A DNA stretch of 64,000 bases from a virus: the IMG/VR virus record IMGVR_UViG_3300012005_000004, positions 1 through 64,000 of that record; one strand, written 5' to 3'. Shown piece after piece: positions 9,967-25,043 of this stretch. Each line of letters begins with the position of its first letter. Position 1 is the stretch's first letter. The position numbers were made by a program, and so were the translations under genes. The notes under the pieces are model-generated. The model was not told where the DNA came from. It did not search any database and saw only the letters and a list, made by a program, of their open reading frames with translations.

Positions 9967-9993
9967 AATAAGCGCCAAATTTGGCGCTTATTT
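9967..9993 (+). terminator. Rho-independent terminator-like hairpin
   Basis: AATAAGCGCCA-aatt-TGGCGCTTATT then T-rich. Confidence 0.7.
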
Positions 9994-9996: not shown

Positions 9997-10026
9997 GTTT
10001 ACTTCACGGTGAATAAGTGATACAAT
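9997..10026 (+). promoter_or_regulatory. Early-type promoter
   Basis: GTTTAC-N18-TACAAT. Confidence 0.7.
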
Positions 10027-10057: not shown

Positions 10058-11464
10058 ATGACCAAATCCTTTGCCGACGCGATCTCCACAACTGAAAAGA
10101 CAGGTAAGAAGGTTGAAAAGTTTGCGGCTCTGAGCGGTTTTGGTCCAGACGAAAAACGCCTCATCGAAGAGACGTTCAATCCATTCAGGGTATTTGGAGT
10201 TAAGCAATTTGACAAGCCTGAAGTTTACGCTCCATATGATGCTCACTACGATCCATTTTTCTACTTGCTCGATCAATTAAATGATCGTAAGATTACAGGT
10301 GGAGAAGCTAAGCGTTCTGTTACAGCGGTGCTTTCACTCTACACTCAAAATACCGCTAACTATCTTGAGCGGGTTCTCAGGAAAGATTTGAAGTGTGGCG
10401 CTGATGTAGATACCTTTCGTAAGATCTACCCAGACCTCAATATCCCAAGCTTTGACTTGATGCTGTGCGGAAAGATTGAATATTCAAAGGGTCCAAAAGG
10501 CGAGCTGATCTACAATCCCAAGAAATACGTTTGGGAATTTCCTTGCCTCGGTGAGGTCAAATATGACGGGAATCGACTAGTTGCATTAGTGAAGAACGGA
10601 GTGGTTGAGTACCTCTCGCGATCTGGTCTTCCTTCTGATTACTGTACCAGTCTTTTCGATGATGAGCTTGCTCTATTAGAGAAGCACGTAGGACAACCAA
10701 TCATGGTTGACGGCGAAGCACTGGGCGAAGGTTTCCAAGCTACCGCGAAGTCTAAAGGTTCAAAGAGCGACAAGTCTGGTCTTCGATTCTTTGTATTTGA
10801 CATGCTCACTGTAGCTGAGTGGGAAGCTCAAGCTTCTAACAAAGATCAAATTGCGCGTACTGGAGCTCTCTCTGTCTCGATCAAAACGCTTGGCTTGACC
10901 AAGATCATTAAGTCAAAGCATAAGATCCTTCATAACATGGAGGAGGCTAATGAGTTCTACACAGAGGTGATCGAGCTTGGGCTTCCTGGACAAGATGAAG
11001 GTTTGATCATCAAGAAGCTAACAGGTAAGTACGAGTGGAACTCCAAGAAGCGCACCACCACATGGGCTAAGTGGAAGCCTGTTCTAGACGTTGACGTAAA
11101 GATCACCGGCGTTTTGTTTGGAAACCCTGGAACAAAGAACGAAAAGCGTTGCGGAGCCTTCATCGTAGAAGGTGAAGACGAAAATGGAAATAAGATCAAG
11201 TCGAAGTGCGGGGGTTTCAAGGTCAATGACAAGAAGTTTCGCGCTTGGTTTGCTGAATTTTGCGTTGACAATAAGATTGACCTTGAGGCAGAGCTGGTAG
11301 GTCGCTCGTATGATGAAGTTTTCCGTACCTTGGCGGTTCAACGTCCGGAGCTGTTTGTTGGATATACAGCAATGATCGAGTGCCAAAATCTTTCTCAAGC
11401 TGAGAACTCTGAAACCTTTGCGCTGCGCTTCCCGCAGTTTATCCAACTAAGGAGTGATAAATGA
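10058..11464 (+). CDS. ATP-dependent DNA ligase (T4 gp30-like)
   Basis: Motif I EVKYDG, VDGE, FFVFD, EGLIIK, WAKWK, LRFPQF. Confidence 0.95.
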   Translation: MTKSFADAISTTEKTGKKVEKFAALSGFGPDEKRLIEETFNPFRVFGVKQFDKPEVYAPYDAHYDPFFYLLDQLNDRKITGGEAKRSVTAVLSLYTQNTANYLERVLRKDLKCGADVDTFRKIYPDLNIPSFDLMLCGKIEYSKGPKGELIYNPKKYVWEFPCLGEVKYDGNRLVALVKNGVVEYLSRSGLPSDYCTSLFDDELALLEKHVGQPIMVDGEALGEGFQATAKSKGSKSDKSGLRFFVFDMLTVAEWEAQASNKDQIARTGALSVSIKTLGLTKIIKSKHKILHNMEEANEFYTEVIELGLPGQDEGLIIKKLTGKYEWNSKKRTTTWAKWKPVLDVDVKITGVLFGNPGTKNEKRCGAFIVEGEDENGNKIKSKCGGFKVNDKKFRAWFAEFCVDNKIDLEAELVGRSYDEVFRTLAVQRPELFVGYTAMIECQNLSQAENSETFALRFPQFIQLRSDK

Positions 11465-11883
11465 AAAAACAACGGATCACGCTCGACATGTCAATACAAG
11501 ATATCGCCATAGAGATCTCCAGGGAAGAAGATGGAGGTTATAACCCTGGAGCTCTCCGAGTTTCGGTGGACCTCTTGCACCAAGCTGGCGCCATAGATCC
11601 AGACAACGCGCTTGGTGGGCTTGGAGTTATCTTGAGCCTGGATACATTTCAAATCTATGGTCACAAGATCTGGATACTCTACAAGGACATTTGCGGAGAG
11701 AGCATTCCATTGATGGTTTCGGTTCTTCGAGCCGTACAACAAGGAATGTTTCCAGTTATAAGCCTCAAGAATGCAATTGATGAGCATGAGCTTGGACGCC
11801 CAAAAAATCCGATCTTAACTAGTGAAAAGGTTGAAGCCCTTCGTGCTGAATTACGAAAACAGCTTCCGAACTTCAAGGGATGA
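11461..11883 (+). CDS. Hypothetical protein
   Basis: GYNPGAL...LD...IYG..IWILYKDIC motif; AGGAG SD. Confidence 0.7.
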   Translation: MKKQRITLDMSIQDIAIEISREEDGGYNPGALRVSVDLLHQAGAIDPDNALGGLGVILSLDTFQIYGHKIWILYKDICGESIPLMVSVLRAVQQGMFPVISLKNAIDEHELGRPKNPILTSEKVEALRAELRKQLPNFKG

Positions 11884-11884
11884 A

Positions 11885-12205
11885 ATGAATCCACTACTTG
11901 ATATTCGATGGATAACTCGACACGGTGAACCCATCAAGATCCGAGACATGACAGAAGCTCACGCTAAGAATTCACTTGCGTTCATCATGGACAAGATCGC
12001 GGCCGGACATCCGGTGTGGTGCGATCCTATCACCGGTCAATTTAAGTATGATCCAACTAAAACTAATGCGCCATTTGTCGCCAGGTCTCTTGAGCGCGGC
12101 TTGATCATCTCGCAGATGAATGATCTTCTTGATAAGATCAAAGATCCGATGAATGACATGTTAGCGGAAAAGATCAAGGATCCGAGAAACTCAAACAATA
12201 TCTAA
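11885..12205 (+). CDS. Hypothetical protein
   Basis: W.T..G..I.I.DMT..H..N motif common in phages. Confidence 0.65.
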   Translation: MNPLLDIRWITRHGEPIKIRDMTEAHAKNSLAFIMDKIAAGHPVWCDPITGQFKYDPTKTNAPFVARSLERGLIISQMNDLLDKIKDPMNDMLAEKIKDPRNSNNI

Positions 12206-13234
12206 ATGGACATCTACTCTCTAACGGCGAAGAAGCTTCTGGCGATCTCAGTTCCTGAGAAGCTGTTTACCCGTGATGGGTTAAAGAAGGAATGGCAAAA
12301 GCTATCCTCTAAGTGGCACCCAGACAAGAATGAAGCGGTTGATCATGGTGTGTTATCTCACATTAACATGCTTTATAATCAAGCCTTAGATAAGGTGGCG
12401 AAGGACCTTTGGGTAATTCCTGGACAGCTAGACCTTAGCTCTAAAGATGGAAGAAAGTTTCAGATTCACTATAAGAAGCACCGTGAGCTCGAGCTCGGTG
12501 ATATGTACATAAGCGACACGGTCGTCGCTTACATCATTAAACCTGGTAACTCAGACCTGGTAGCTTCAGCCAAGAAGATCACGTCTTCATTTTCATACGA
12601 TGGTGACGACATGAAGAAGGAGTACGCTAAGTATCTCCCGGAAACTATAGTCTCAACCCAGCTTATAGACGGTTCAGAGCTGATCGTTTACAAGAAAACG
12701 GCAGATGTGTTTTGTCTTCGAGATGTTCTTGAGCATTATGGAACGATCGACCCGAAGCACGTTGCTTGGATCATGAGCCGGTTGTATAACCTAAGCTGCT
12801 ACCTCAAGTGGGCGGGCGTAGCTCACAATCACATCTCTCCAGACACGATCTTTATCTCCGCTAAGTTTCACTCAGCGTTGTTGCTCGGTGGGTGGTGGTA
12901 CTCAACGATAATTGGAGAGAAGATGGTAGCCTTACCAAAGAGAACGATCGAGAACATAAGCCCTGCCTTGATCAAGGCTAAGGTAGGAACCGTTAAGGTT
13001 GACTCTGAGCTGATCAAAGCAACAGGACGAGAGCTGCTTGGAGACATTCATGGAATGAAGCTCTTGACAGATAAGAGCATCCCTAAAGCTTTCTTGATGT
13101 GGTTGCGTACTCCAGCTAACGGAAAACCGGTCGCTGATTACAAATTGTGGTACAATAAGATCTTACCAGACAGCTTTGGTCCTCGAAAATTTGTGAAGAT
13201 GGAGCTGTCGTCGAAAGAGGTATATGATGCTTAA
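12206..13234 (+). CDS. J-domain (HPD) fused to protein-kinase-like domain
   Basis: KWHPDK J-domain; kinase-like HVAWI..RL...HNHISPDTIFI...LLGGWWY (degenerate catalytic loop). Confidence 0.75.
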   Translation: MDIYSLTAKKLLAISVPEKLFTRDGLKKEWQKLSSKWHPDKNEAVDHGVLSHINMLYNQALDKVAKDLWVIPGQLDLSSKDGRKFQIHYKKHRELELGDMYISDTVVAYIIKPGNSDLVASAKKITSSFSYDGDDMKKEYAKYLPETIVSTQLIDGSELIVYKKTADVFCLRDVLEHYGTIDPKHVAWIMSRLYNLSCYLKWAGVAHNHISPDTIFISAKFHSALLLGGWWYSTIIGEKMVALPKRTIENISPALIKAKVGTVKVDSELIKATGRELLGDIHGMKLLTDKSIPKAFLMWLRTPANGKPVADYKLWYNKILPDSFGPRKFVKMELSSKEVYDA

Positions 13235-13403
13235 AGAGCTAACGTATGGATTGCTGCTGATTATAATGTTAGTTGGTGGATTTTTCTTGGGGGTTCAAGC
13301 AGTAACGTTGAGCGTAGATAATGCTTGTTCTCAGTCAGGAACGTGGCAACATGCAGGTCATTTTGGTGCACTGGGCGGAAAGATTACATGCAAGGTAGTT
13401 TAA
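13224..13403 (+). CDS. Small membrane protein (59 aa, not in ORF track)
   Basis: GAGG SD; hydrophobic helix then Cys pair. Confidence 0.55.
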   Translation: MMLKELTYGLLLIIMLVGGFFLGVQAVTLSVDNACSQSGTWQHAGHFGALGGKITCKVV

Positions 13404-13435
13404 CGAGTCAATCGACTCACATTTAGGAGAATGAC

Positions 13436-14377
13436 ATGGGTGGTGGTACATGGGATCCAGGTAAGTGGGATGACACTTCGCGAGCAACAAAAGCGAAAAC
13501 TATTGACAAGGTTTTTACAACTTCAGCCGCATCGGTTGCGGCGAACGGGATCGACAAAGACCTCGACCCGATGAACGTCGCATTTCGAGAATCATGCGAC
13601 TCTGTTGATCATCCAAATTCGACAGCGCTGATCGCAGCACTTGATGTTACTGGTTCAATGGGGCACATTGCGCATCAGATGGCATCTGAAAGTCTCGGCG
13701 TTCTGTTCAAGGAGATCCTTGATCGTAAACCGATCTCTGATCCTCACCTGATGTTCATGGCCGTTGGTGATGCAGCAGCTGGTGATCGTGCTCCGTTGCA
13801 AGTGTCTCAGTTCGAGTCAGACAACCGCATCATTGATCAACTGACCAAGATCTACCTTGAAGGGAATGGCGGTGGTAACAGCTCCGAGTCGTACACTTTG
13901 CCTTGGTACTTCGCCGCCATGCACACGTCAATCGATTGCTTTAAGAAGCGCGGCAAGAAGGGTTACCTCTTCACGATGGGCGATGAGATGTGTCCGCGGA
14001 CTCTAACTGCTGGAGAGATCAAATCTGTTCTCGGAGATGATGTTCAAACCAACTACACCACCGAGCAGCTTCTTGAGATGGTCTCTAAGTCATACCACGT
14101 TTTCCACATCGTGATCGAACAAGGAAGCCACTTTAGGCATTCTCCAGGAGAAGTTACAGCTTCGTGGAAAGGAGTTCTCGGTCAGCACGCTCTGTTCTTG
14201 TCCGATCACACCAAGCTGTCCGAGGTCATCGTTTCGACGATCCAGGTCATCGAAGGCGAAGACAAGGACAAGGTCGCCGCATCGTGGGGTGGAGATACCT
14301 CGATCGTGGTCGGTAAAGCTATCGGTGGTCTCAGCACTGACGTTGATAGCATTACGTCGAGTGTGGTTAGGCTTTAA
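13436..14377 (+). CDS. von Willebrand A domain protein
   Basis: MIDAS-like LDVTGSMG, GNGGGN..ESY, FTMGDE. Confidence 0.85.
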   Translation: MGGGTWDPGKWDDTSRATKAKTIDKVFTTSAASVAANGIDKDLDPMNVAFRESCDSVDHPNSTALIAALDVTGSMGHIAHQMASESLGVLFKEILDRKPISDPHLMFMAVGDAAAGDRAPLQVSQFESDNRIIDQLTKIYLEGNGGGNSSESYTLPWYFAAMHTSIDCFKKRGKKGYLFTMGDEMCPRTLTAGEIKSVLGDDVQTNYTTEQLLEMVSKSYHVFHIVIEQGSHFRHSPGEVTASWKGVLGQHALFLSDHTKLSEVIVSTIQVIEGEDKDKVAASWGGDTSIVVGKAIGGLSTDVDSITSSVVRL

Positions 14378-14399
14378 CATTTTTTGAAGTTGTTTGATT

Positions 14400-14427
14400 A
14401 AAAGCCCGGAAATTTTCCGGGCTTTTT
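14400..14427. terminator. Bidirectional terminator hairpin (identical copy at 56553)
   Basis: AAAAGCCCGGAA-att-TTCCGGGCTTTT. Confidence 0.8.
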
Positions 14428-14435
14428 CTTATTTC

Positions 14436-14465
14436 ATATACAAGAGCTTGAAGCTATGTTATAAT
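14436..14465 (+). promoter_or_regulatory. Early-type promoter (likely leaderless transcript)
   Basis: ATATAC-N18-TATAAT; ATG 6 nt after -10. Confidence 0.65.
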
Positions 14466-14471
14466 TATTTG

Positions 14472-14654
14472 ATGGAAATTCTAAACAAATTAATCAAGTT
14501 GATAACTCCTAAGCCAAGAGTTATTGTCCCAGAATCTGGAATGGTAGCTTACGAGGATGGATTTAGGCTAGCTCAAAATCCATTTCGCGAGCATACACCA
14601 GACCATTCGATCTGGCGCGATGATTGGCTTTTTTCTGCAGGGAGATTTCGTTGA
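14472..14654 (+). CDS. Hypothetical protein
   Basis: AYEDG....NPF......W...W motif; start 14472 preferred. Confidence 0.55.
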   Translation: MEILNKLIKLITPKPRVIVPESGMVAYEDGFRLAQNPFREHTPDHSIWRDDWLFSAGRFR

Positions 14655-14806
14655 GCACACTGAGAGACCCAAGCCCACGGTTGAAAGCGGTACTACGCCA
14701 AATGGAGCTGATGAGCCAATTTCCTGCACAACCTTATAAAGTCAAAGTAGAAGGCGGAAAGATGACGGTCACGAAGCCGAAAAGGATCATAAATGAAAAC
14801 ACCTAA
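14651..14806 (+). CDS. Hypothetical protein
   Basis: TTG start with GGGAG SD, overlaps neighbours. Confidence 0.45.
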   Translation: MSTLRDPSPRLKAVLRQMELMSQFPAQPYKVKVEGGKMTVTKPKRIINENT

Positions 14807-16046
14807 GGTTGTTATCGGAGCTGGGTACGGTGATGAAGGCAAAGGTTTAATCACAGATTACTTGTGTGCGAAGCACGGAGCTGATGTCGTAATTAGATTC
14901 AATGGTGGAGCTCAAGCAGGCCACACCGTTCAAACCCCAGCTGGTGAGCGTCACGTCTTTAGCCATTTCGGCTCTGGGATGTACGCCGGCGCAGCTACGT
15001 TCCTCAGTAAGTTCTTCATCGTTAACCCGATCGCCTTCTTCAAGGAGGTAGAGCTTCTCTATTCTCCGTTGAGGGCCACCGTTCCAGATTTGTTCATCGA
15101 TCCCTACGCGATGGTTAGCACTCCGTATGACATGATCATCAATCAAATGCTTGAGCAAGAGCGCGGCAACGGACGAGTCGGCGCCAAGAAGCATGGAAGT
15201 TGTGGATTGGGTATCGGTGAAACTGTTGAGCGTTGCGAGAACTTAGCTCATGATGCTGGGATATTGTGGCATGAAGTCGAAGACTTCCCTATGTTTGAAG
15301 CAAAAATGAAGTACGTTCGAGATGTGTGGTATCCAACCCGTTGTGCTCAGCTAGGACTGGACCCAGATCTCGGTGCGCACGTCGCCAAGAATGATAACAT
15401 CTTCAACAACTTCATCGAAGATACCAAGCTGATGGCCACTTACGTCAAGGTAATGGATTCAGATTACCTTGACGGCGCTAATCAGATAGTGTTTGAAGGT
15501 GCTCAAGGATTGATGCTTGACCAGGATTATGGGATCGCTCCACACATTACTCGGTCAAACACCGGCATCTTAAACGTGTTGGACATTTGCGGTGATGTTG
15601 GAATTCAAGAGTTAGATGTTACTTATGTGACGAGGTGTTACACCACGAGACACGGAGCTGGTCCGTTAGACCATGAGCTGATTGTTCCACCATATCGATC
15701 AATCGTTGACCAGACAAACGTTCCTAATTCATTTCAGGGTTCGCTGAGGTTCGCTAACTTAGATCTCAATGTAATTAAAAATGCGATCGACAATGACCTT
15801 TATCGTGGTAGCATATACTTGCCACCGCCATACATGAAGGTGAACGCTGGACTAGCCGTAACGTGCTTAGATCAACTCAACGGAGAAGACGCTAAGTTTT
15901 ATTCTGGTGGATCTCTCGTTAAGGTAAAATCAGATGCATATGGAGATGCGGCCGACTATATCAATAACTTTGTAGGGTTGAAATCTCCAGTTATCAAGAG
16001 CTACGGACCAACTAGAGCAGATGTTATCCAAAAGGAAATTGTATGA
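14793..16046 (+). CDS. purA: Adenylosuccinate-synthetase-like protein (divergent PurA clade)
   Basis: GAGYGDEGKG, RFNGGAQAGHT, HGSCG.GIG, FEGAQG.MLD, YTTRHGAGP; canonical TTGRxRR loop absent. Confidence 0.85.
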   Translation: MKTPKVVIGAGYGDEGKGLITDYLCAKHGADVVIRFNGGAQAGHTVQTPAGERHVFSHFGSGMYAGAATFLSKFFIVNPIAFFKEVELLYSPLRATVPDLFIDPYAMVSTPYDMIINQMLEQERGNGRVGAKKHGSCGLGIGETVERCENLAHDAGILWHEVEDFPMFEAKMKYVRDVWYPTRCAQLGLDPDLGAHVAKNDNIFNNFIEDTKLMATYVKVMDSDYLDGANQIVFEGAQGLMLDQDYGIAPHITRSNTGILNVLDICGDVGIQELDVTYVTRCYTTRHGAGPLDHELIVPPYRSIVDQTNVPNSFQGSLRFANLDLNVIKNAIDNDLYRGSIYLPPPYMKVNAGLAVTCLDQLNGEDAKFYSGGSLVKVKSDAYGDAADYINNFVGLKSPVIKSYGPTRADVIQKEIV

Positions 16047-16525
16047 AACCTTATGACCTGGGCTCAGCTGAACTTCGCACAATGCAAGCTGAAATGAATG
16101 GAGCTAGCAAAGCTCCTTCTATTGATAGGTGCGTTGAAGACCGACGATCAATGTCATTATCTGATCTTGATCTTGCTCTTTCGGTCGCTCGTAAACAATT
16201 CGAAGACGTAAAAGCTGAAGTCCAAGAAGCAAATCGAATCCAAGCTGAGCGAGAACAAAAAGCTTATCAATCCGTCGAGAAAATTCAACGACAAATCATC
16301 GACACCAAGAAAGCTGAAGTCGAACCGGTAGTCTCCGAGCATGCGCTGCTCAGATGGTTAGAGCGGGTGATGCGTATCGACATGAATGAAGTTACAAAGC
16401 GAATCCTTGATGAAAGTACCAAGTCAAAGATCATGTTCGCCGGTAGCGGTAAGATATACAAAGATGGAGTTTGCATCGTCTTTAAGAATAAGACGGTGGT
16501 AACAGTATCAGTTAAGGACAAATGA
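16043..16525 (+). CDS. Hypothetical coiled-coil protein
   Basis: Coiled coil then VSEHALLRWLERV motif. Confidence 0.7.
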   Translation: MKPYDLGSAELRTMQAEMNGASKAPSIDRCVEDRRSMSLSDLDLALSVARKQFEDVKAEVQEANRIQAEREQKAYQSVEKIQRQIIDTKKAEVEPVVSEHALLRWLERVMRIDMNEVTKRILDESTKSKIMFAGSGKIYKDGVCIVFKNKTVVTVSVKDK

Positions 16526-17379
16526 AACATATTCGATTCGCCAGTGACATTCACCTGGACTTTGACATCGCAGCCTGGCACAAGGGGTTGCGAAGAAGTC
16601 ACGGAGTGATGTGTGACATGGACATGCTCTGGTATCCAGAGCCGATGGAAGGCGATGACGAAACGACGCTAGTGATTCCTGGAGACCTCTGGGTAGAGCG
16701 CAGGTTCTTGAGCCAAAAGCATCCCGCCACAAAGAAAAGCTGGATGCAAGAGCTGTCAGGACGCTTTAAGTACGTTGTGTTTGTGCTTGGTAATCATGAT
16801 TATTGGGGTCAAAACCTAAGCAAAGAACCAGGACGAATCAAATCGGTCATCAATGATGACAAGCTGACGAATGTGTTCTTTCTAGAAAATCTGTCGATCG
16901 TTCTCGACCAGGTTAAGTTTCTCGGTGGAACGCTCTGGACAGACTTTGCTAGGCAAGATCCTCTATTGATGTTCAATGCACCAAACGTAATGAATGACTA
17001 CAAGTACATTCGAAATGGCGCAAGCTTTGGGAGGTTGCACCCAAGAGACTTGCTTGCCGCTCACCTGAAGACACGATCATTCATCAGTAACAATTGCGTC
17101 AAGGATGATCCAGCACAGCGTATCATGGTGGTAACTCACATGGCTCCATCATACATGTCTTATGCTAAAGCTCCATTTAGCTCTAAGTACCAACCGTACT
17201 ACGCTTCGGACCTATCGGACATGATCTTAGATGATTGCCAAGACGCCGAGTGGTGGCTTCATGGTCATATTCATGATCCTGCCGATTACATGATCGGAAA
17301 CACCAGAGTAATGTGTAATCCACGAGGTTACTCCAGACAACAAATTAAGTGGGACCCTTTGATGAGGATAGATCTATGA
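16522..17379 (+). CDS. Calcineurin-like metallophosphoesterase
   Basis: SDIH, PGD, GNHD, VTHMAP, HGHIH, NPRGY. Confidence 0.9.
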   Translation: MKHIRFASDIHLDFDIAAWHKGLRRSHGVMCDMDMLWYPEPMEGDDETTLVIPGDLWVERRFLSQKHPATKKSWMQELSGRFKYVVFVLGNHDYWGQNLSKEPGRIKSVINDDKLTNVFFLENLSIVLDQVKFLGGTLWTDFARQDPLLMFNAPNVMNDYKYIRNGASFGRLHPRDLLAAHLKTRSFISNNCVKDDPAQRIMVVTHMAPSYMSYAKAPFSSKYQPYYASDLSDMILDDCQDAEWWLHGHIHDPADYMIGNTRVMCNPRGYSRQQIKWDPLMRIDL

Positions 17380-17759
17380 GCACTACATTCGATAAGTTTA
17401 TGGTTAAAGACCAATATGGTTCACCGCAGTATCGCTTGAATGAAAGACTGGCAACGGCTCAAGGAGTCACCGATGAACAGCTGACGAAGCTTCGTGACTT
17501 GCACCAGCAAAAGCTTATGCTGTTTGAGCAGATGGAGCTTCTTGATCCAACTACTGAACCTGGACGGCTTAAGTCACTAGCTTTCGCGGTGGAACAGATT
17601 GAATTCGACCTGCAAGCAAATTGGAACTTTCCTCAAGATCCAAACTTTCACGAATGGTATCTGGTTCCTCATTGTAAGTGTCCGACTCTAGACAACCGCG
17701 ATCGAAAGGGGACACAGTTCAAGGTCATTTCAACATTCTGTCCGATTCACGGAAAATAA
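17376..17759 (+). CDS. Conserved phage hypothetical protein
   Basis: LQ..WNF..D.NFH.W...P.C.CP..DN...CPIHG. Confidence 0.7.
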   Translation: MSTTFDKFMVKDQYGSPQYRLNERLATAQGVTDEQLTKLRDLHQQKLMLFEQMELLDPTTEPGRLKSLAFAVEQIEFDLQANWNFPQDPNFHEWYLVPHCKCPTLDNRDRKGTQFKVISTFCPIHGK

Positions 17760-17760
17760 G

Positions 17761-18021
17761 ATGAAAATAAGATTTAGCACAATTGTGGTGTTTGTGCTTG
17801 CTGGTGTTGTTATTTTCTTAGCATGTTCTCTCTTAGCGATTTCAATCTCTATGGCATTCCATACGATCTTCACGAAGAGATCATCACCTGAGTGTAGGAA
17901 TGAAATTGTTGTGTCGATCGTCAAGGCTGAGTATCGAACAGTGACGGTCAAAACGGAGTCAGGTAAGTTATTGCGGTTAGACCAACCAACCGTTAAACCA
18001 GGAGATAAGATCTGCGTATGA
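17761..18021 (+). CDS. Membrane-anchored hypothetical protein
   Basis: N-terminal TM helix. Confidence 0.6.
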   Translation: MKIRFSTIVVFVLAGVVIFLACSLLAISISMAFHTIFTKRSSPECRNEIVVSIVKAEYRTVTVKTESGKLLRLDQPTVKPGDKICV

Positions 18022-18248
18022 TAGTTTATGGTTTCTTCTACAATAGCTGCATCTTTGAGAGCGCCCCAGGGCTCCAGTCCTTGCACTTAACGAAGGCTGG
18101 AGCGTATAAGGCTATGAGAGCTGATATGATCAAGGTGGCGATGGAAGACCGTGAAAATTCTCCGTATAAGTCTAAAGGTTGGACTAAAGAAAAACCAATC
18201 GATTGGCGTTCTTGGTCCATAAAGAAACTAGAGGTTCAAGATGAGTGA
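18018..18248 (+). CDS. Hypothetical protein
   Basis: ATGA overlap. Confidence 0.6.
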   Translation: MIVYGFFYNSCIFESAPGLQSLHLTKAGAYKAMRADMIKVAMEDRENSPYKSKGWTKEKPIDWRSWSIKKLEVQDE

Positions 18249-18492
18249 TATTCATAGACGTTCAGATGAGACTATAAGAAAAGATTCATTTTGGAACATA
18301 GCTGAACAAAACAATCGGTGTGAATATGCAGTTTGTGTCAACATCCCAGGTTTTCCAGATGCAGAAATTTTAGATGCTTATGAAGCTTGGCTAAATGAAC
18401 AAAGCATAAAATACTATTTCTATTACTTCTTTATCTTTTTTAAGAATGAAGAAGACGCTATAGCATTTAATTTACGTTGGGTATTAAGATGA
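18241..18492 (+). CDS. Hypothetical protein
   Basis: C-terminal F.NEEDAIAF.LRW motif common in phages. Confidence 0.6.
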   Translation: MSDIHRRSDETIRKDSFWNIAEQNNRCEYAVCVNIPGFPDAEILDAYEAWLNEQSIKYYFYYFFIFFKNEEDAIAFNLRWVLR

Positions 18493-18797
18493 AAATGAAA
18501 AGATCTAATTTTGATGTAGTTATGCGTGCGCTATCAGAATATGTTCCAGTCACACTAGGTGGTAGAGTTTATCGGCTTATCAAGGCAGGTGACCCAATAG
18601 TCGCAGTGTCTGGTGTTTTTGAATCAGATCACGACGTACTCTGCCACGTTCTTCAAATGTTCAAAAATGAAAGCAAGGCTTATGCAGAAATAACTCTTCC
18701 GGCAGATCTCACCGTTAATAACTTGATCGAGCTCGCAGATTCTTTAACCGAAGAAGATATAATTAATTGTATCTTCAGCCATGCTGGTCGAATCTAA
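18489..18797 (+). CDS. Hypothetical protein
   Basis: Operon packing. Confidence 0.6.
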   Translation: MKMKRSNFDVVMRALSEYVPVTLGGRVYRLIKAGDPIVAVSGVFESDHDVLCHVLQMFKNESKAYAEITLPADLTVNNLIELADSLTEEDIINCIFSHAGRI

Positions 18798-19134: not shown

Positions 19135-20163
19135 ATGAAATCAACAATGTCGTACTTTTCGACCAGCTTCATCTTCACATTGGTCGCCCTAGTATTTTGT
19201 TACTTTGTCGCGGGCATCGAAGGAGCCTTCTTGGCTGGAGTTCTAGGGATCTTAGAGACCAGCCTATCGATGGACAACGCCGTCGTAAATTCCACGGTCC
19301 TTCGCGACATGGACCAAGTATGGAGGAAGCGTTTCCTGACTTGGGGTATGGTTATCGCCGTGTTTGGAATGCGACTCGTGTTCCCAGTCTTGATCGTCTG
19401 GGCTACCAGCACGCTAGGCCTTGTAGAATCTGCTGTACTTCCCTTTAAAAACCCACACCTCTATGAAACTACGCTGACGGCCGCTCATGTAAGCATCGCG
19501 GGCTTCGGTGGAACGTTCTTGCTGATGGTCTTCCTGAAGTTCTTCATCGATGATTCAAAGGAGGAACACTGGGTACCATTCGTAGAAAGCGTCATGGTCA
19601 AGGCTGGACGTATCGAAGCAGTACAGATCATCTTGGCTCTTGCGGTGGCTGCTGTAGTTACGCTGCTGCTGCCTGCCATCGATAAGATGCAGTTTATTCA
19701 ATCGGCCGTGTGGGGCATCATCGCTTACCTAGTAGTTGACGGCATCGGCGCGATCTTTGAGTCCGATGAAACTGAAGGATCAGTCGCCGCATCTGTCGCT
19801 AAGGCTGGGATCGCCTCATTCCTTTACCTCGAGATGGTTGACGCATCCTTCAGCTTTGACGGCGTAATCGGAGCGTTTGCGGTTACCAACAATGTTATCT
19901 TGATCGCGCTTGGCCTCGGGATCGGCGCCATGTTTGTCCGGTCGTTGACCTTGTTGATGGTAGACAAGAATACTCTCGGAACCTTCCGTTACCTGGAACA
20001 TGGAGCCTTCTGGTCGATCGGAGTTCTTGCCATCTGTATGTTCCTCGGCATCGTCGTTGACATCCCAGAGGTTGTCACGGGATTGTCGGCCGCGGTTATC
20101 TTGGGACTTGCTCTCGGACACTCCGTATATGCAAACCGTAAAGAGCTGGCGTTGGCCTCTTAG
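19135..20163 (+). CDS. DUF475 / TerC-like integral membrane protein
   Basis: LETSLSMDNAVVN, FLYLEMVDASFSFDGVIGAFA, YLEHGA. Confidence 0.9.
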   Translation: MKSTMSYFSTSFIFTLVALVFCYFVAGIEGAFLAGVLGILETSLSMDNAVVNSTVLRDMDQVWRKRFLTWGMVIAVFGMRLVFPVLIVWATSTLGLVESAVLPFKNPHLYETTLTAAHVSIAGFGGTFLLMVFLKFFIDDSKEEHWVPFVESVMVKAGRIEAVQIILALAVAAVVTLLLPAIDKMQFIQSAVWGIIAYLVVDGIGAIFESDETEGSVAASVAKAGIASFLYLEMVDASFSFDGVIGAFAVTNNVILIALGLGIGAMFVRSLTLLMVDKNTLGTFRYLEHGAFWSIGVLAICMFLGIVVDIPEVVTGLSAAVILGLALGHSVYANRKELALAS

Positions 20164-20171
20164 AGATAAAA

Positions 20172-20432
20172 ATGATACTACCTAAAGATCTTCTTGATCA
20201 AATATCGTATTATGAGTATAACACTCAACGGGTGAATCGATTCGCGACGAACACACTCACACAATCAAAATTTATATTACATTTTAAGCAATGGTGGAAA
20301 CCAAGTAAAACTATCTTCATCAATTGGTTACAGCGAACAACTCAAGACGGTGATTTATTGATTTTCGAAGAACCAGATGAAAGTAGAGAACTTAGAGATC
20401 AACTACACTTATACATTCAAGATAGAAACTAG
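20172..20432 (+). CDS. Hypothetical protein
   Basis: AT-rich ORF inserted in Ter cluster. Confidence 0.5.
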   Translation: MILPKDLLDQISYYEYNTQRVNRFATNTLTQSKFILHFKQWWKPSKTIFINWLQRTTQDGDLLIFEEPDESRELRDQLHLYIQDRN

Positions 20433-20457
20433 TTTCATAACTGTTAAGGAATAGATC

Positions 20458-21723
20458 ATGCAACCAACCCGTCTAGGTGGAGCTCCAAACCTTCAAGCTC
20501 AACCAGCATCACCGCCTGCTGCTGTAGTTGAATCGATGATGCCAGACTTTTTGACGCCAAAGACAGAACAATCGGTTATGGTAGCACCAACGATGAGCAC
20601 ATCGATCACATTACCACCAAACTTCCCGGTCACCTTCCCTGAGCAAAAGATGCGGCAGATAGAAGGAGATGTCAAGAAGTTTGACTTTGACAAGATCTCG
20701 ATGCGAGACATTGCCATGATCGGAACCGAGGTCGAGCAGGAGCTTCACAAGACACTTGGTGTCTTCCTAGCGAAGATCAACCAGGGTGACCAACCAAAGC
20801 TGTTCAAGCTTGTTGAAAAGCTCAAGGATGAGGTCGACAAGGAGAACCTTGGTGAGCTTGCTGATAAGATTCTCAACGCCCAGCCTGGCATGATCGATAA
20901 GCTCAAGGGGATGTTCAGCGCAAAGTCGCTATCAAAGGCGTCCAACAATGCGTTCGAGAACGTTCGGCTGCTGGCCGCAGGCAAGACCAAGACGCTGACC
21001 GAGGTTATCGCCAAGATGGAGCAGGAACTCGCGGTTGAGATGAACCGGCTCGAAGGAGAGGTTAAGAACATGGAGGCGCTTAAGAACGCGTACGTCGATC
21101 GCTTCATGGACTATGCCTACTTGACGGTTTACATGATCGGCATCCATGAAAAAGCTCAACAGTACGTTGCTGCAGTTGAAGCGCAAGGCCAAGTCGATCC
21201 TACTTTCCTCAATGACCTTCGGGCTAAGTTTCAAGCTCTGGAAAGCCGTGCATTGACCGTTGAAGGCATGATGACGAAGCTGCCTAGTGACCAGCTCGCG
21301 ATACGTCAGATCCAGAACGCCGGTGTCCAAACGCTCATGGAAACTGCGACGACATCATCGACCAGGTTTGCTTCGATCAAGATGACGCTGATTAAGATCA
21401 ACGGTGCGTTGATCGTTCAAGGTGTTCAACGGTTGAGCGCTCAAGGAAAAGCTCTTGATGAAACGCTGCAAACCGTCGATCGCAAGCTGATGAATGAAGT
21501 TGTCACCGTCGCCGCAAACGCTCCTGGAGATAATCGATTGGCTCAAGCCCAACAGCTCCAACAGGTCATCGCTGACACCAAAGCGCTCCAGGTGATCGTC
21601 GAGCAAGCACGGGTGAAGAACTCCGCACAGTTCCAGCAGGCCCGCGAGATCTTCTCTCAAGCCCGAGCTGATATGCAGCAGCTTGGAACTACCATCCGCC
21701 CAGACCAACCGCTTGGATATTAA
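20458..21723 (+). CDS. telA: Toxic anion resistance protein TelA/KlaA-like
   Basis: Long coiled coil with IG.E.EQ, IRQIQ pattern; Ter-cluster context. Confidence 0.7.
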   Translation: MQPTRLGGAPNLQAQPASPPAAVVESMMPDFLTPKTEQSVMVAPTMSTSITLPPNFPVTFPEQKMRQIEGDVKKFDFDKISMRDIAMIGTEVEQELHKTLGVFLAKINQGDQPKLFKLVEKLKDEVDKENLGELADKILNAQPGMIDKLKGMFSAKSLSKASNNAFENVRLLAAGKTKTLTEVIAKMEQELAVEMNRLEGEVKNMEALKNAYVDRFMDYAYLTVYMIGIHEKAQQYVAAVEAQGQVDPTFLNDLRAKFQALESRALTVEGMMTKLPSDQLAIRQIQNAGVQTLMETATTSSTRFASIKMTLIKINGALIVQGVQRLSAQGKALDETLQTVDRKLMNEVVTVAANAPGDNRLAQAQQLQQVIADTKALQVIVEQARVKNSAQFQQAREIFSQARADMQQLGTTIRPDQPLGY

Positions 21724-21725
21724 AG

Positions 21726-21911
21726 ATGACGAAGGAAGAAGTTAAAAAACATCTTGAGAATAATGAAACATTGGGTGGCGGTTCATGGGTATTTTCTAAA
21801 AACTGTATGAACTGCGGAGATGGCTGCTGTTATCAAGAATTTAGCGGCGTAGAAGAAGCTCTTGAAAACATAGGATGGTACGTTGATCTTGATGAATTAG
21901 AAGTTGTTTGA
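21726..21911 (+). CDS. Small Cys-rich hypothetical protein
   Basis: CMNCGDGCC. Confidence 0.55.
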   Translation: MTKEEVKKHLENNETLGGGSWVFSKNCMNCGDGCCYQEFSGVEEALENIGWYVDLDELEVV

Positions 21912-21932
21912 TCACATAATTTAGGAAAAACT

Positions 21933-22202
21933 ATGACTTCAGAAGATATCTATCGAGCAGCTCTTATCGAGCTCGCAGATGAAGGAAATGAGAAAGCGAA
22001 ATTTGCTCTCGGTATGGGATCTAGAGTTAGCGAAAACTCTAGAGAGATTCGTCCAAATGTTTCTACTGCTCTACAAAAAGCATCTGGTGAATTGACCAGA
22101 GCGCTAAGGTTGAATGGAGATGAGTGGACTAAAGAAACCGACAGAGCTGTTTCTGCTGCCCACGCCTACTTAATGGAAGCGATGTCTCAATTAGCTAGAT
22201 AG
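21933..22202 (+). CDS. Hypothetical protein
   Basis: AGGA SD. Confidence 0.6.
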   Translation: MTSEDIYRAALIELADEGNEKAKFALGMGSRVSENSREIRPNVSTALQKASGELTRALRLNGDEWTKETDRAVSAAHAYLMEAMSQLAR

Positions 22203-22208
22203 AGAAAC

Positions 22209-23162
22209 ATGAACGAACTCGCGGTCATCACGACTTACTACAACCCAGTTCGCTATCAAACGCGTCGCAAGAACTATGACGTTTTTATGGCGGGTATGAA
22301 GAAAGCTGGAGTGACTTGCATCACAGTCGAATGTGCGTTCGGAGATGAACCGTTTGAGCTAGAAGAATCTCCAGCTGTTATCCAGCTTCGATCTAAAACC
22401 TTGGTTTGGCAAAAAGAGAGGTTGATTAACATCGCCGCGTCCTACGTTCCAGATCATTTTAAGTATATCGCTTGGATCGATTGTGACGTCGTATTCATGA
22501 ATAACAGCTGGGTAAAAGATACAATAAAGGTTCTCAAGAAGCACCAGGTGGCCCAGCTCTTCAAAACTTGTATGAGGTTGGATAAGCATGGCGACCGCAC
22601 AAATGACATCTCTGAGTCCTTCGCCTCGGTGATGAGCGATCATCCAGAATATCTCAACTATGAACGGTATGACAAGCATGGTCACACCGGTTACGCTTGG
22701 GCGATGCGCCGGGAGATCTTTGATAAGGTTGGATTATATGAAGCTGCGATCTCAGGCAGCGCAGATCACTTCATGGCTCATGCCATCTATGATGATTACA
22801 ACTTTTGCATTCAAAATGCTCTCAAGCATGATGAATTTCAGATCTCACATTTAAAGGAGTGGGGAAAGAGATTCTATGAGATAGTTAAAGGATCGCTAGG
22901 ATGTGTACAAGGAGAGATCGAGCACCTTTGGCATGGAGATGCGGTTGATCGGCGGTACTTCCTCCGTATGCATGAGATTACAGAGCTTGGATTTAATCCG
23001 TGGACAGACATAGTTTCACTTCCAGGAAAGCCTCTTGATTGGAGTCCTGGAATGAATAAACTGGGGCTAGTAAAGTACTTCGATAATTACTTTAGGGGCC
23101 GTCGAGAAGATGGAGCTAAAGAACCAGTGAGTCACCATTGTGGAGAAACTTGTGTCGTATAA
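22209..23162 (+). CDS. Putative glycosyltransferase, GT-A fold
   Basis: WQKERLINIA, WIDCD (DxD), GYAWA.RR, HLWHG. Confidence 0.7.
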   Translation: MNELAVITTYYNPVRYQTRRKNYDVFMAGMKKAGVTCITVECAFGDEPFELEESPAVIQLRSKTLVWQKERLINIAASYVPDHFKYIAWIDCDVVFMNNSWVKDTIKVLKKHQVAQLFKTCMRLDKHGDRTNDISESFASVMSDHPEYLNYERYDKHGHTGYAWAMRREIFDKVGLYEAAISGSADHFMAHAIYDDYNFCIQNALKHDEFQISHLKEWGKRFYEIVKGSLGCVQGEIEHLWHGDAVDRRYFLRMHEITELGFNPWTDIVSLPGKPLDWSPGMNKLGLVKYFDNYFRGRREDGAKEPVSHHCGETCVV

Positions 23163-23964
23163 TATTCCAGAAGCACGGGCTAGCCTAGATAAGAAGTTAG
23201 ATGATGTTAACGCTAACTTATCAACATTAAACTATAAGCAACGAGATAATTTCAACTCTCGCATAGCTTACATCAGCGAAGAAGCTAAAAGGATGCTTCC
23301 TGACTTTTCGAAGAACACAGAGAGCTATCTTGCTGAAGTAGCTCCAGATTTTGTGACTGAGAAAGTACATAAAATCTTCAAGTCGAATAGAAAGTTGCTT
23401 GGTGTTTTCAAGCGACGAAATTCTGATAACGCTCTATGGGGGCTTCACATCTCATTGAAGAGTTACCTTAATAGCTGTAAGTGGAGAGAGTTGCGTCACA
23501 TGGATGACTCTATAGAGATTGTCCAGAATGAAATCAATTCTCTCAACCAGGAGCGTGTAACTCTGATCAAGACTATCAATTCACTCAGAGATTTATCAGC
23601 GTCTGGTAAAAAACCCAGCCCACGTTTGAGGCTTGCTTTAACTAAATCCTCACAAAATAATATTACTCCATCATCAAAAGCTAGGTTGAAGAGAATCCAA
23701 GAAGAACCATCTTACCAACCTGATTATCAAGAGAATGATGATTTAGATCTGTTAAAGCTGCTCATCATTGAACAACAGATGTTCGGCCAGACAGGCACCA
23801 TCGATTCGGTACACGGCGGTGGCGGAACGTTTGATGGAGGTGGAGCGTCTGGCAACTGGGACAGCGGACCGATGACCAATCCAGGATGTAACATTGACCT
23901 CATCAGCGCGGTGGTTGGAGCTGGTGTGATCGCAACAGATGATTCATTGGGGACGTTCTCTTAG
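23140..23964 (+). CDS. Hypothetical protein with Gly-rich GGGTFDGGGASGNW tail
   Basis: Coiled coil plus Gly-rich motif; start uncertain. Confidence 0.6.
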   Translation: MEKLVSYNIPEARASLDKKLDDVNANLSTLNYKQRDNFNSRIAYISEEAKRMLPDFSKNTESYLAEVAPDFVTEKVHKIFKSNRKLLGVFKRRNSDNALWGLHISLKSYLNSCKWRELRHMDDSIEIVQNEINSLNQERVTLIKTINSLRDLSASGKKPSPRLRLALTKSSQNNITPSSKARLKRIQEEPSYQPDYQENDDLDLLKLLIIEQQMFGQTGTIDSVHGGGGTFDGGGASGNWDSGPMTNPGCNIDLISAVVGAGVIATDDSLGTFS

Positions 23965-23966
23965 TT

Positions 23967-23996
23967 GTTTACACAAGGTGTGAAATGGTATAAGAT
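23967..23996 (+). promoter_or_regulatory. Early-type promoter
   Basis: GTTTAC-N18-TAAGAT. Confidence 0.6.
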
Positions 23997-25042: not shown

Positions 25043-25043
25043 G

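Follow-up and report, generated by a model that had tools for sequence, protein, structure and literature searches.

Conservation and layout of the gene module

The vWA-domain protein and the PurA-like protein encoded at 13436-16046 form the core of a widely conserved yet uncharacterised gene module, in which the vWA protein is the obligate partner and a J-domain pseudokinase is optional. Our preferred reading, a tentative one, is that the PurA-like protein is a GTP-driven ligase that aminates a nucleotide with a 6-oxopurine base, using some amine other than aspartate; that the vWA protein works with it as an obligate partner; and that the set is tied to NAD and adenylate recovery. An account of what this gene set does was not found in the literature.

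The vWA gene is directly followed by the PurA-like gene in 64 of 65 viral loci and 79 of 80 bacterial loci. Of 145 loci fetched independently, 143 show this adjacency, which is far above chance; the linkage whose conservation the first-pass annotation had proposed to survey is indeed conserved. Relatives of the vWA and PurA-like proteins occur in 218 and 239 phage records, respectively. Some 200 mycobacteriophages of cluster C show the pairing, as do phages of Vibrio and Rhizobium. Adjacency was inspected directly in Vibrio phage phiKT1024, Rhizobium phage TM30 and the Mycobacterium phages Catera and Pinkcreek. All three genes stand together in 61 of the 80 bacterial loci, in agreement with the similar bacterial trios mentioned at first pass. 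As a unit, however, the trio holds only for its vWA/PurA-like pair: about 40% of the viral loci and 76% of the bacterial ones include the J-domain pseudokinase, which marks it as an accessory part, and some other phages carry a methionine-rich protein, or nothing, in its place.

The window, that is, the whole stretch of 64,000 nucleotides analysed here, belongs to an 80-kb phage contig of IMG/VR, estimated to be 22% complete. The contig is a jumbo-phage fragment, not a piece of a bacterial chromosome. The three clustered genes described at first pass were all found, on the plus strand, with the following features.

12206-13234, plus strand: J domain and degenerate protein-kinase fold (pseudokinase), 342 aa; accessory module member
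13227-13403, plus strand: possible small ORF of about 58 aa with one hydrophobic helix; direct sequence reading, uncertain
13436-14377, plus strand: vWA-domain protein with intact MIDAS, 313 aa
14400-14426, plus strand: hairpin resembling a terminator, just 3' of the vWA stop codon, with a 12-bp stem and then a T run
14437-14465, plus strand: sigma-70-like promoter match (TATACA, 17-nt spacer, TGnTATAAT; 10/12), by consensus only
14473-14654, plus strand: small ORF, 60 aa from ATG; doubtful gene, not conserved
14793-16046, plus strand: predicted PurA-like GTP-dependent ligase with remodelled aspartate pocket, 417 aa

The clustering thus stands, whereas a single tight operon does not, since the hairpin and the promoter-like site split the vWA gene from the PurA-like gene. 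The promoter match precedes the latter; the region shows no enrichment of such sites. The vWA gene has an AGGAG ribosome-binding site 7 nt upstream. The ORF at 13227-13403, below the threshold of the ORF list, lies in the interval separating the pseudokinase gene from the vWA gene and is not conserved, unrelated small ORFs occupying the same place in related loci. That at 14473-14654 is listed as 86 aa from a TTG at 14394, a version overlapping both terminator and promoter; it shows no similarity to Catera gp251, located at the same place, and no match in family searches. In the window, the module has as neighbours a DNA ligase, a metallophosphoesterase and, 3 kb downstream, a Ter cluster.

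The PurA-like protein and its remodelled aspartate site

The protein was compared with the adenylosuccinate synthetase PurA (EC 6.3.4.4; E. coli structures 1ADE, 1KJX and 1CG0). It contains the GDEGKG P-loop and AGHT, and in the alignment NVPNSFQGSLR stands opposite the NEFGATTGRRR of E. coli PurA, so both the retained motifs and the altered aspartate loop were correctly described at first pass. Asp13, Lys16, His41 and Gln224 occur in every one of 58 clade members, Thr239 in 56 and the guanine-specifying Asp333 in 53. At the aspartate site, Arg131 is replaced by Leu or Val, Thr300 by Trp, Tyr or Phe, Thr301 by Gln (58/58), Arg303 by Ser, Thr or Lys, and Arg304 by Leu, Phe or Ile. The remodelled loop follows the motif TNxxNx[WYF]QGx[LIF]R[FY], with a conserved Arg at its end. 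Two further invariant residues are new, Gln38 and His273 (Val273 in PurA), and the 5'-phosphate site is changed at Asn38 (to Gln) and Thr129 (to Cys). The protein lacks every residue implicated in aspartate binding, and those of phosphotransfer and base binding are invariant. The residues common to the two proteins, which belong to the same PF00709 fold family, suggest that GTP-driven phosphorylation of the purine O6 is probably shared. Since Arg303 of PurA also contacts the ribose, its loss, together with the changes at Asn38 and Thr129, means that the nucleotide could be other than IMP.

The PF00709 match (E 2e-45) covers residues 6-296 only, and the C-terminal 120 residues, about a third of the protein, are not recognised by PurA models; a search with this clade-specific part yielded 311 clusters at 50% identity. 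The protein failed the curated PurA equivalog model (132 bits, cut-off 402) and the PurZ model (54 bits, cut-off 300). In the tree, its clade is separate from canonical PurA and PurZ, the PurZ of PhiVC8 falling far outside, and solved PurZ chains match residues 1-65 only. PHROG and RefSeq give the family a PurZ-type name, and databases call its relatives PurA-like. Unlike PurA, the protein is vWA-paired and a second copy: a canonical, full-scoring purA is also present in all of the five tested isolate bacteria with the trio. The scores, the loss of the aspartate site and this separate purA uphold the proposal that it does not serve housekeeping AMP synthesis, and its distinctness from the housekeeping enzyme is, at the sequence level, supported.

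The vWA protein and the J-domain pseudokinase

The vWA protein has no match in Pfam but matches phrog_2971 (E 1e-51), and Foldseek retrieved only vWA domains with its AF2 model. The MIDAS residues DVTGS...GDE (D70-x-T72-x-S74, D183) are invariant in 130 homologues, and two lineages carry inteins precisely at the beta-strand of the MIDAS, which indicates a conserved critical site. The protein has at least 5992 relatives, and none of the 120 listed carries a Pfam domain or functional name. Its N-terminal tail is disordered (residues 1-54 in the model) yet conserved, beginning with Met-Gly in 98% of the 130 homologues, within an MGxxx[WFY] motif; the C-terminal tail, G-V-V-R-L/F, is conserved as well. 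Since an upstream start codon is impossible in 100 of the 130, the Gly would be the mature N-terminus.

The pseudokinase sequence holds WHPDKNE, VAHNHISPDTIFI and LLLGGWWY. Alone, it gives a weak DnaJ match in Pfam (E 9e-4, under the gathering score). HPD is invariant among 21 homologues, whose profile matches J domains (E 3e-6) and protein kinases (E 6e-5) in the PDB. For the AF2 model (pLDDT 92), the best Foldseek match is a DnaJ-PKA (J-PKAc) chimera, followed by ordinary protein kinases, and the protein is homologous to Catera gp249 (hhalign 99.5%). The HRD Asp, the DFG and the beta3 Lys are unconserved across the 21 homologues. All three are absent here, which extends the earlier remark on missing HRD and DFG motifs, and the kinase-fold domain is predicted to be catalytically degenerate, a pseudokinase.

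The TerY-P triad of Ter systems unites the vWA protein TerY, a PP2C phosphatase and a Ser/Thr kinase. The module resembles it in coupling a vWA to a kinase-fold protein, as well as in the nearby Ter cluster of the window. In contrast to the triad, its kinase is degenerate and bears a J domain, PP2C is absent, the vWA protein is unmatched by TerY and TerF models, and the PurA-like partner has no counterpart there.

NAD-related neighbourhood, proposed reaction and alternatives

A tie to NAD metabolism, through NrtR, NAMPT and NMNAT-Nudix, is an addition to the first-pass annotation. NrtR (Nudix and winged helix), a repressor of NAD genes that responds to ADP-ribose (PMC2330246), lies within 8 kb of the set in 48 of the 80 bacterial loci, usually adjacent and divergent. 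Neighbours in viral loci include NAMPT, NMNAT-Nudix, an RNA ligase, RlaP and a PNK-like kinase-HD protein (AAA_33 and HD), and Clostridium also shows NAMPT and NMNAT-Nudix. The association with NAD and RNA-repair genes in phages is modest, at 9-13 of 65 loci. Phage gene neighbourhoods are loose in general.

The observations behind our preferred reading are the linkage of the genes, the pattern of residues, the protein folds, the paralogy and the proximity of NrtR and NAMPT; from them we infer the reaction, the roles of the partners and the physiological role. The PurA-like enzyme would bind GTP and a 6-oxopurine nucleotide (IMP-like), as PurA does, and move the gamma-phosphate onto O6, a step proposed because the P-loop and the equivalents of Asp13, His41 and Gln224 are all invariant. 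By extension of PurA chemistry, an amine would then displace the O6 phosphate. The rebuilding of the pocket as a conserved aromatic-Gln-Gly-x-hydrophobic-Arg loop points to an amine other than L-aspartate, the candidates being ammonia (which would turn IMP directly into AMP), some small amine and an amine on a protein; nucleotide and amine are both guesses. The vWA protein would be needed for activity, whether it regulates or targets the enzyme as a subunit or serves as its substrate, and the optional J-domain pseudokinase may draw DnaK, the Hsp70 of the host, into the complex. Such recruitment is proposed by analogy with MoxR AAA+ ATPases, which act via vWA adaptors (CbbQ-CbbO, NorQ-NorD, RavA-ViaA): there too a MIDAS vWA is coupled genetically to a chaperone-type ATPase and a target enzyme, and tethers the remodelling machine to its client. 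Unlike these systems, the module has no AAA+ ATPase, and the ATPase would be the host Hsp70, reached through the optional J-protein. Since the bacterial unit adjoins NrtR, it would switch on during NAD breakdown, and the phage unit travels with genes of NAD salvage (NAMPT, NMNAT-Nudix) and RNA repair. Its role would probably be to recover or re-route the pool of adenine nucleotides and NAD in infection or NAD-depleting stress. Against this reading stand the lack of a covariation signal for a specific contact between the proteins and the absence of NrtR and NAMPT from the fragment to which the window belongs.

Some of the same evidence could be read as a protein-directed ligation, joining the activated purine C6 to the alpha-amine of the vWA N-terminal Gly, or to an amine carried by some protein that the vWA protein and pseudokinase recruit, to give an N6-linked nucleotide-protein conjugate. 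The nearly universal Met-Gly start, the probable exposure of Gly and the conserved motifs of the disordered tail, reminiscent of partner-binding tails, are consistent with it. So are the obligate vWA pairing beside an optional chaperone part and the loss of residues that hold the aspartate carboxylates, absent from a glycyl-peptide, in favour of aromatic and hydrophobic ones. We nevertheless consider it doubtful: inter-protein covariation, searched for specific contacts including those between the vWA tail and the enzyme pocket, gave no signal, mycobacteriophage annotations put 12 residues ahead of Met-Gly, and we know of no precedent for N6 nucleotide-ligation chemistry on proteins. The MGGGRW start is also retained in one vWA homologue fused to U-box domains, which may weigh against it. 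Database names, the strong PF00709 match, the retained phosphotransfer residues and GTP-specificity Asp, and the Arg at the loop end would suit an ordinary adenylosuccinate synthetase, a divergent auxiliary copy boosting AMP in infection or stress, perhaps evading feedback inhibition of host PurA, with neighbours unrelated or merely regulatory. This is unlikely, since the replacement of Arg131, Thr301, Arg303 and Arg304 is itself a conserved pattern, the score is a third of the equivalog cut-off, the C-terminal part escapes PurA models and a canonical purA coexists; moreover, strict vWA pairing across phyla would be left unexplained.

Loss of catalysis has already occurred within the module, in the pseudokinase, and vWA adaptors typically act in remodelling complexes, as in MoxR-vWA systems. 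The PurA-like protein might accordingly be a GTP-binding sensor or switch of a vWA/pseudokinase/Hsp70 complex, without ligation, but the invariance of catalytic base, acid, P-loop Lys and base-binding Gln across a deep clade, unexpected for a dead enzyme, makes this quite improbable. More remote still is a single-enzyme re-synthesis of NAD, or some other reaction directed at ADP-ribose, in which phosphotransfer of the PurA type would activate a hydroxyl of ADP-ribose and a nitrogen nucleophile, e.g. nicotinamide, would displace the phosphate. ADP-ribose is the effector of NrtR, which accompanies 48 of the 80 bacterial loci, NAMPT and NMNAT-Nudix are neighbours in phages and Clostridium, the new aromatic, Gln and His residues could hold a nicotinamide ring, and the GTP-driven overall reaction is thermodynamically feasible by our own estimate. 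However, this proposal is pure inference from gene context, and the invariant Asp13 and Gln224, which act on the purine lactam in PurA, argue for a 6-oxopurine. As for a modified purine deoxynucleotide for the phage genome, PurZ makes the 2-aminoadenine precursor in phages such as PhiVC8 and S-2L. Like the present protein, it is a phage-borne PurA relative of changed (here, inferred) substrate specificity, and the PurZ-type family name would agree with such a pathway. Yet PurZ is shorter, is reported to use dGMP and aspartate and sits with DatZ and MazZ, whereas no dATPase or MazG-type partner is found among the conserved neighbours of the module, which is common in bacterial chromosomes beside NrtR. 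With the low PurZ score, the distance in the tree and the short span of the PurZ matches, this role is largely refuted and barely conceivable.

Whereas NrtR and NAMPT are absent from the 80-kb fragment carrying the phage copy, the bacterial module, divergent from or adjoining NrtR, recalls in its layout alone the unexplained nrtR<#>nrtX-nrtY operons of Streptomyces, Frankia, Proteus and Hahella (Rodionov et al. 2008, PMC2330246).

Organization and linkage of the module

The window comes from an 80-kb IMG/VR viral contig estimated at 22% of its genome, which points to a jumbo phage as the source. The + strand carries nearly all genes of the window, including the three of interest:

12206-13234, +, ORF with a J domain and a kinase fold (J-pseudokinase), 342 aa
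13436-14377, +, vWA ORF, 313 aa
14793-16046, +, PurA-like ORF, 417 aa

The module is flanked by a DNA ligase gene upstream and a metallophosphoesterase gene downstream, a synteny common to four related viral loci, and a Ter cluster begins at 19135, 3 kb downstream. A megablast search of the region against phages gave no match, a scan of 11500-18500 with Rfam returned sub-threshold chance matches only, and none of the three proteins matched a known defence system in PADLOC. Several elements delimit possible transcription units:

9967-9992, bidirectional terminator-like hairpin with an 11-bp stem, ahead of the DNA ligase gene
9998-10026, promoter-like site following this hairpin
10058-11464, ATP-dependent DNA ligase gene
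14400-14426, terminator-like hairpin with a 12-bp stem and a T run, just 3' of the vWA stop
14437-14465, promoter-like site (consensus match only, 10/12 positions, extended -10 TG)
gap between the vWA and PurA-like genes, 86-aa ORF starting from TTG, overlapping the hairpin and promoter-like site of this gap

The hairpin at 9967-9992 and the adjoining promoter-like site probably mark the start of a transcription unit that, judging from sequence, probably ends with the pseudokinase and vWA genes, the next unit starting with the PurA-like gene. Since the second hairpin and promoter-like site occupy the same gap as the 86-aa ORF, this ORF is doubtful. In Mycobacterium phage Catera, the gene order is gp249 ('serine/threonine kinase'), gp250 (vWA), gp251 (88 aa) and gp252 (PurA-like). 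The small ORF of the window has no similarity to gp251 and, given also its overlap with the terminator-like and promoter-like elements, was rejected as a conserved gene of the module.

The vWA protein was detected in 218 phage records (about 201 Mycobacterium cluster-C, 10 Rhizobium, 6 Vibrio and 1 other) and the PurA-like protein in the same groups (201 Mycobacterium, 10 Rhizobium, 6 Vibrio), the few extra PurA-like records being short and matching the canonical N-terminal part only. For instance, a vWA homologue is encoded just upstream of the PurA-like gene in Vibrio phage phiKT1024 (49% identity) and Rhizobium phage TM30 (41%). Used as sole query against viral contigs, the PurA-like protein found no related loci; these were retrieved with the vWA alignment (A1), which gave 65 metagenomic viral loci. 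The PurA-like gene lies directly downstream of the vWA gene in 64 of them, and the J-pseudokinase gene directly upstream in 26-27. Searching bacterial and archaeal species genomes with the vWA alignment gave 244 places, of which 80 were kept for counts; here, the PurA-like gene is downstream in 79 and all three genes are present in 61, with the pseudokinase upstream. The similar bacterial trios mentioned in the first-pass annotation are thus real. From these frequencies, the vWA/PurA-like pair constitutes the core of the module and the pseudokinase a frequent accessory.

Isolate carriers include Clostridium beijerinckii, Dyella mobilis, Massilia brevitalea, Plasticicumulans acidivorans, Geomonas, Roseomonas and Teichococcus, and many genomes of Competibacteraceae, Obscuribacterales and Pyrinomonadaceae carry the module, on contigs of up to 2.2 Mb. 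One contig binned in a gammaproteobacterial MAG (L151) agrees with an IMG/VR viral contig (L022/L023) in length and range, and the PurA-like proteins are identical; the 'bacterial' loci from MAGs thus include some phage contigs, which makes the bacterial counts slightly too high. The mycobacteriophage version of the module is closest to that of Saccharibacteria. A search with only the last 121, clade-specific residues of the PurA-like protein gave 311 clusters at 50% identity; almost all of them are about 400 aa long and match at the C-terminus. The module is widespread, with several hundred sequence clusters, some 200 sequenced mycobacteriophages, Vibrio, Rhizobium and jumbo phages, and bacterial phyla that include Saccharibacteria, Competibacteraceae, Clostridium, Obscuribacterales and Acidobacteria.

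Residue pattern of the PurA-like enzyme

The PurA-like ORF contains the motifs GDEGKG and AGHT, as previously noted. Its match to PF00709 (E 2e-45) covers the first 296 residues only, corresponding to model positions 1-276 of 416, and remnants of TxLD and SxGP are found in the C-terminal part of the alignment. In the HMMER alignment, NVPNSFQGSLR stands against NEFGATTGRRR of E. coli PurA, which bears out the claim that the aspartate-binding TTGRxRR loop is replaced. The Atlas model of the protein has a pTM of 0.92, and its nearest neighbours belong to the same family.

The pocket was compared in an alignment of 58 clade members and E. coli PurA (L070), in mature E. coli numbering. The P-loop, Asp13, Lys16, His41 and Gln224 are invariant (58/58), and Thr239 and Asp333 are kept in 56 and 53 members, respectively. 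We take Asp13, His41 and Gln224 to be the residues of E. coli PurA that transfer the phosphoryl group to O6 of IMP. On the other hand, the residues which we take, from mutagenesis and crystal structures, to form the aspartate site of E. coli PurA are all replaced: Arg131 by Leu/Val, Thr301 by Gln (58/58), Arg303 by Ser/Thr/Lys and Arg304 by Leu/Phe/Ile. Further changes concern Asn38 (Gln in 57/58), Thr128/Thr129 (Ser/Cys), Val273 (His in 58/58) and Thr300 (Trp/Tyr/Phe), while the loop lacks one residue relative to PurA and carries the signature TNxxNx[WYF]QGx[LIF]R[FY]. By this pattern of kept and replaced residues, the machinery of phosphotransfer for a 6-phosphoryl purine is retained and the aspartate site has been lost. 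With its substrate pocket systematically rebuilt, this member of a classic, well-understood family very probably catalyses a purine-nucleotide reaction that has not been described.

In a quick maximum-likelihood tree, all vWA-linked sequences form one clade (SH-aLRT 95), with viral and bacterial members intermixed, and canonical PurA stands apart (98). In each of five module-carrying isolate bacteria examined, the genome holds a second PF00709 gene, scoring 595-639 bits over the full model versus 127-155 for the module copy; the copy of the purine pathway is this canonical purA, not the PurA-like gene. The window protein also falls below both curated PurA cut-offs (131.7 bits versus 402 for the equivalog NF002223, 126 versus 395.6 for TIGR00184). 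Together with the coexisting purA, these scores indicate that the PurA-like copy is not a housekeeping one.

The vWA and J-pseudokinase proteins

Searches of Pfam, NCBIfam and PADLOC with the vWA protein gave no match, and its only family assignment is phrog_2971, without known function. Its AF2 core is modelled with a pLDDT of 70-93, and the top Foldseek matches are all vWA domains (probability 1.0), including TFIIH Ssl1/p44, integrin I domains, Rpn10 and Ku80. Among 130 homologues, the MIDAS residues D70-x-T72-x-S74 and D183 show 99-100% conservation, predicting a metal site. Residues 1-54 are modelled as disordered, yet carry conserved motifs. Indeed, 98% of the 130 homologues start with Met-Gly, within MGxxx[WFY]; for 100 of the 130, no alternative start is available, and in the window an AGGAG site lies 7 nt ahead of the ATG.

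Bixzunavirus 'alice'-type phages carry a 255-aa in-frame insertion in the vWA gene, between GRKGY and IFIGDE, whose first residue is Cys and whose Hint and intein matches are weak. In Mycobacterium phage Pinkcreek, gp241 (L163:3165-4988) contains an intein at KKGY / xFxGDE, which is the MIDAS β-strand, and the metagenomic homologue P0122 has one at the same site. About a quarter of the cluster-C phage matches are split, with coverage of residues 1-180 only. Inteins favour conserved, functionally critical sites, and their insertion at the MIDAS β-strand in two lineages supports an active MIDAS. Among unusual architectures, a 557-aa metagenomic homologue (P0126) combines an MGGGRW N-terminus with C-terminal U-box domains of the E3 ligase type. 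Two apparent vWA-PurA fusions (P0121, P0123) were rejected, as their junctions resemble read-through after a frameshift in high-GC DNA, and other long 'fused' ORFs in high-GC loci were set aside as ORF-calling artefacts.

The first ORF contains WHPDKNE, VAHNHISPDTIFI and LLLGGWWY, as reported earlier. Taken singly, the window protein matches the Pfam DnaJ family below threshold (E 9e-4, score 19.7 versus a cut-off of 27.8); a profile of 21 homologues matches solved J domains in the PDB at E 3e-6 and protein kinases (STK33, CDPKs, CaMK1G, VRK3) from E 6e-5. In these homologues, H38-P39 of the HPD tripeptide is invariant and D40 is present in at least 90%. The AF2 model (pLDDT 92) has helices at 26-37 and 47-65, so that HPD lies between helices II and III, as in a J domain, and the remainder is predicted to adopt a bilobal kinase fold. 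The best Foldseek match is the DnaJB1-PKA fusion, followed by PLK1, MST3, PAK1 and Aurora, with E of about 1e-7 to 1e-6 and TM of about 0.5 for the kinases. None of the β3 Lys, HRD Asp, catalytic-loop Asn and DFG Asp is conserved in the 21 homologues, and the window protein has HNH at the HRD position and GGW at the DFG position. The absence of canonical HRD/DFG motifs, noticed from the window sequence, therefore extends to the family, and the loss of these four residues designates the product as a pseudokinase, or at least an unconventional kinase. Catera gp249 is a homologue (hhalign probability 99.5%) in which HPD is present.

The Vibrio and Rhizobium phages, as well as 10 viral loci, encode an unrelated protein in place of the J-pseudokinase. 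This protein has about 228 aa, with a small β domain at its N-terminus and a long tail rich in methionine, containing runs such as MLMPMMMMGG and MQMMMMQKMMGG. Examples directly upstream of the vWA gene are:

L001:7054-7767, methionine-rich protein of a fetched locus
L002:6753-7544, methionine-rich protein of a second locus
L049:7219-7926, methionine-rich protein of viral neighbour cluster c4

A Pfam search with this family gave no match, and the idea that it is a diverged pseudokinase was rejected (hhalign probability 0.3%).

Genomic neighbourhood and possible reactions

The commonest bacterial neighbour of the module is a protein of 220-300 aa with a Nudix domain and an NrtR winged helix (PF21906 at E 5e-20). 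An NrtR gene lies no more than 8 kb away in 48 of the 80 bacterial loci, usually as the divergent gene next upstream, whereas the 80-kb fragment of the window phage lacks both NrtR and NAMPT. In Clostridium loci, a NAMPT gene stands between NrtR and the trio. Recurrent viral neighbours include NAMPT (9 loci) and NMNAT-Nudix, as well as an RNA ligase with a PHA02142 OB domain, RlaP nucleotidyltransferase, a PNK-type kinase-HD protein and TROVE/DUF2828-vWA proteins; in Catera and Pinkcreek, a PNK phosphatase is encoded two genes upstream. Two families recurrent near the module in other viral loci are present in the window:

4888-5985, RlaP-type nucleotidyltransferase
61081-62517, TROVE-domain (Ro60-like) protein

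NrtR is described as an ADP-ribose-responsive repressor of genes of NAD synthesis and salvage; the operons that it regulates include nrtX-nrtY, without known function, which are arranged as nrtR<#>nrtX-nrtY and occur in Streptomyces, Kineococcus, Frankia, Proteus and Hahella (Rodionov et al. 2008, PMC2330246). Two-gene vWA and PurA-like operons account for 19 of the 80 bacterial loci, several being directly divergent from nrtR; the module may explain the nrtX-nrtY genes left without assignment in 2008. The contest over NAD and nucleotide pools is central to anti-phage defence and phage counter-defence. With NrtR adjoining it in bacteria and NAD-salvage and RNA-repair genes in phages, the module could be placed in this contest.

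Collectively, these data describe a real, deeply conserved and uncharacterised module around a retooled PurA-family enzyme, for which we found no functional study in the literature. The best-supported reading, which we hold tentatively, is that the PurA-like protein could be a GTP-dependent ligase: it would use GTP to make a 6-phosphoryl purine nucleotide, and an amine other than aspartate would then receive this nucleotide. The vWA protein would be required for the reaction, the J-pseudokinase, where present, would recruit Hsp70, and the module would serve adenine-nucleotide or NAD recovery during NAD breakdown and be used by phages during infection. Linkage, residue pattern, folds, paralogy and gene neighbourhood come from direct observation, the reaction and the protein roles from inference. 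The first-pass annotation had proposed ligation of a non-aspartate amine by an enzyme distinct from housekeeping PurA; the latter point stands on the cut-offs, residues and coexisting purA. What that annotation observed is confirmed, and its interpretation as a whole is partly supported.

A rival reading specifies the amine as the N-terminal glycine of the vWA protein. Exactly the carboxylate-binding residues are lost and the glycine is almost invariant, as such a ligation would suggest, but mutual information between vWA and PurA-like columns was uninformative in a small set (114 pairs, Neff 85), with no enrichment at the N-terminal tail or the pocket, and we regard this reading as unlikely. 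Its fuller form is a protein-modifying ligase, in which GTP would activate the purine O6, C6 would be joined to the α-amine of this glycine, and the J-pseudokinase and Hsp70 would handle the conjugate; bacteria would couple the system to NAD/ADP-ribose stress, and phages would employ it when they infect. This scheme is rather improbable; if true, it would represent a novel type of covalent bond between nucleotide and protein ('N6-purinylation').

An ordinary but divergent AdSS would share the phosphotransfer residues of PurA, but the replaced aspartate site differs from PurA, making this quite unlikely. Invariant catalytic residues count against a non-catalytic GTP sensor, and we consider such a role very unlikely. 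The NrtR and NAMPT neighbours would suit an ADP-ribose-directed reaction such as NAD re-synthesis, a reading that appears highly improbable. A PurZ-like DNA-base pathway is the least probable reading: the PurA-like protein scores 54.1 bits against the PurZ model NF038379 (cut-off 300), and PhiVC8 PurZ falls far outside the clade on a very long branch. No DatZ/MazZ-type genes appear in the clusters of conserved neighbours drawn from 145 loci, the window contig itself covering 22% of its genome.

The module also differs from known vWA systems. No AAA+ gene is found among the conserved neighbours of the 145 loci, unlike MoxR-vWA systems with their MoxR-type AAA+ ATPase. Compared with the TerY-P triad, the vWA protein has no vWA-TerF-like or TerY Pfam match, the kinase is degenerate, no PP2C lies beside the module, and the metallophosphoesterase is downstream in only 5 loci.

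Separate from the module, the window carries a Ter-type cluster at 19135-26843, comprising a DUF475/TerC-like membrane protein, two TelA-like coiled proteins (24960-26066, with a weak TelA Pfam match; 20458-21723, with none and TelA-like by eye), a GT2 glycosyltransferase, a TerD-domain protein and a vWA-TerF-like protein. The region 42220-49531 encodes PrkA (AAA and kinase C-terminal domain, 662 aa), a 253-aa ORF, DUF444/YeaH (461 aa) and SpoVR (514 aa), a set that is the bacterial YeaG-YeaH-YcgB stress-response trio, which is kinase-like and vWA-containing. Other auxiliary genes of the fragment are:

56747-58867, PAS-GGDEF-EAL protein
54409-55794, protein with a phosphopantetheine-attachment site
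29737-30894, CoaE (dephospho-CoA kinase) fused to a cytidylyltransferase-like domain
31361-32008, DHFR
38634-41003, -, GH16 glycoside hydrolase, 789 aa
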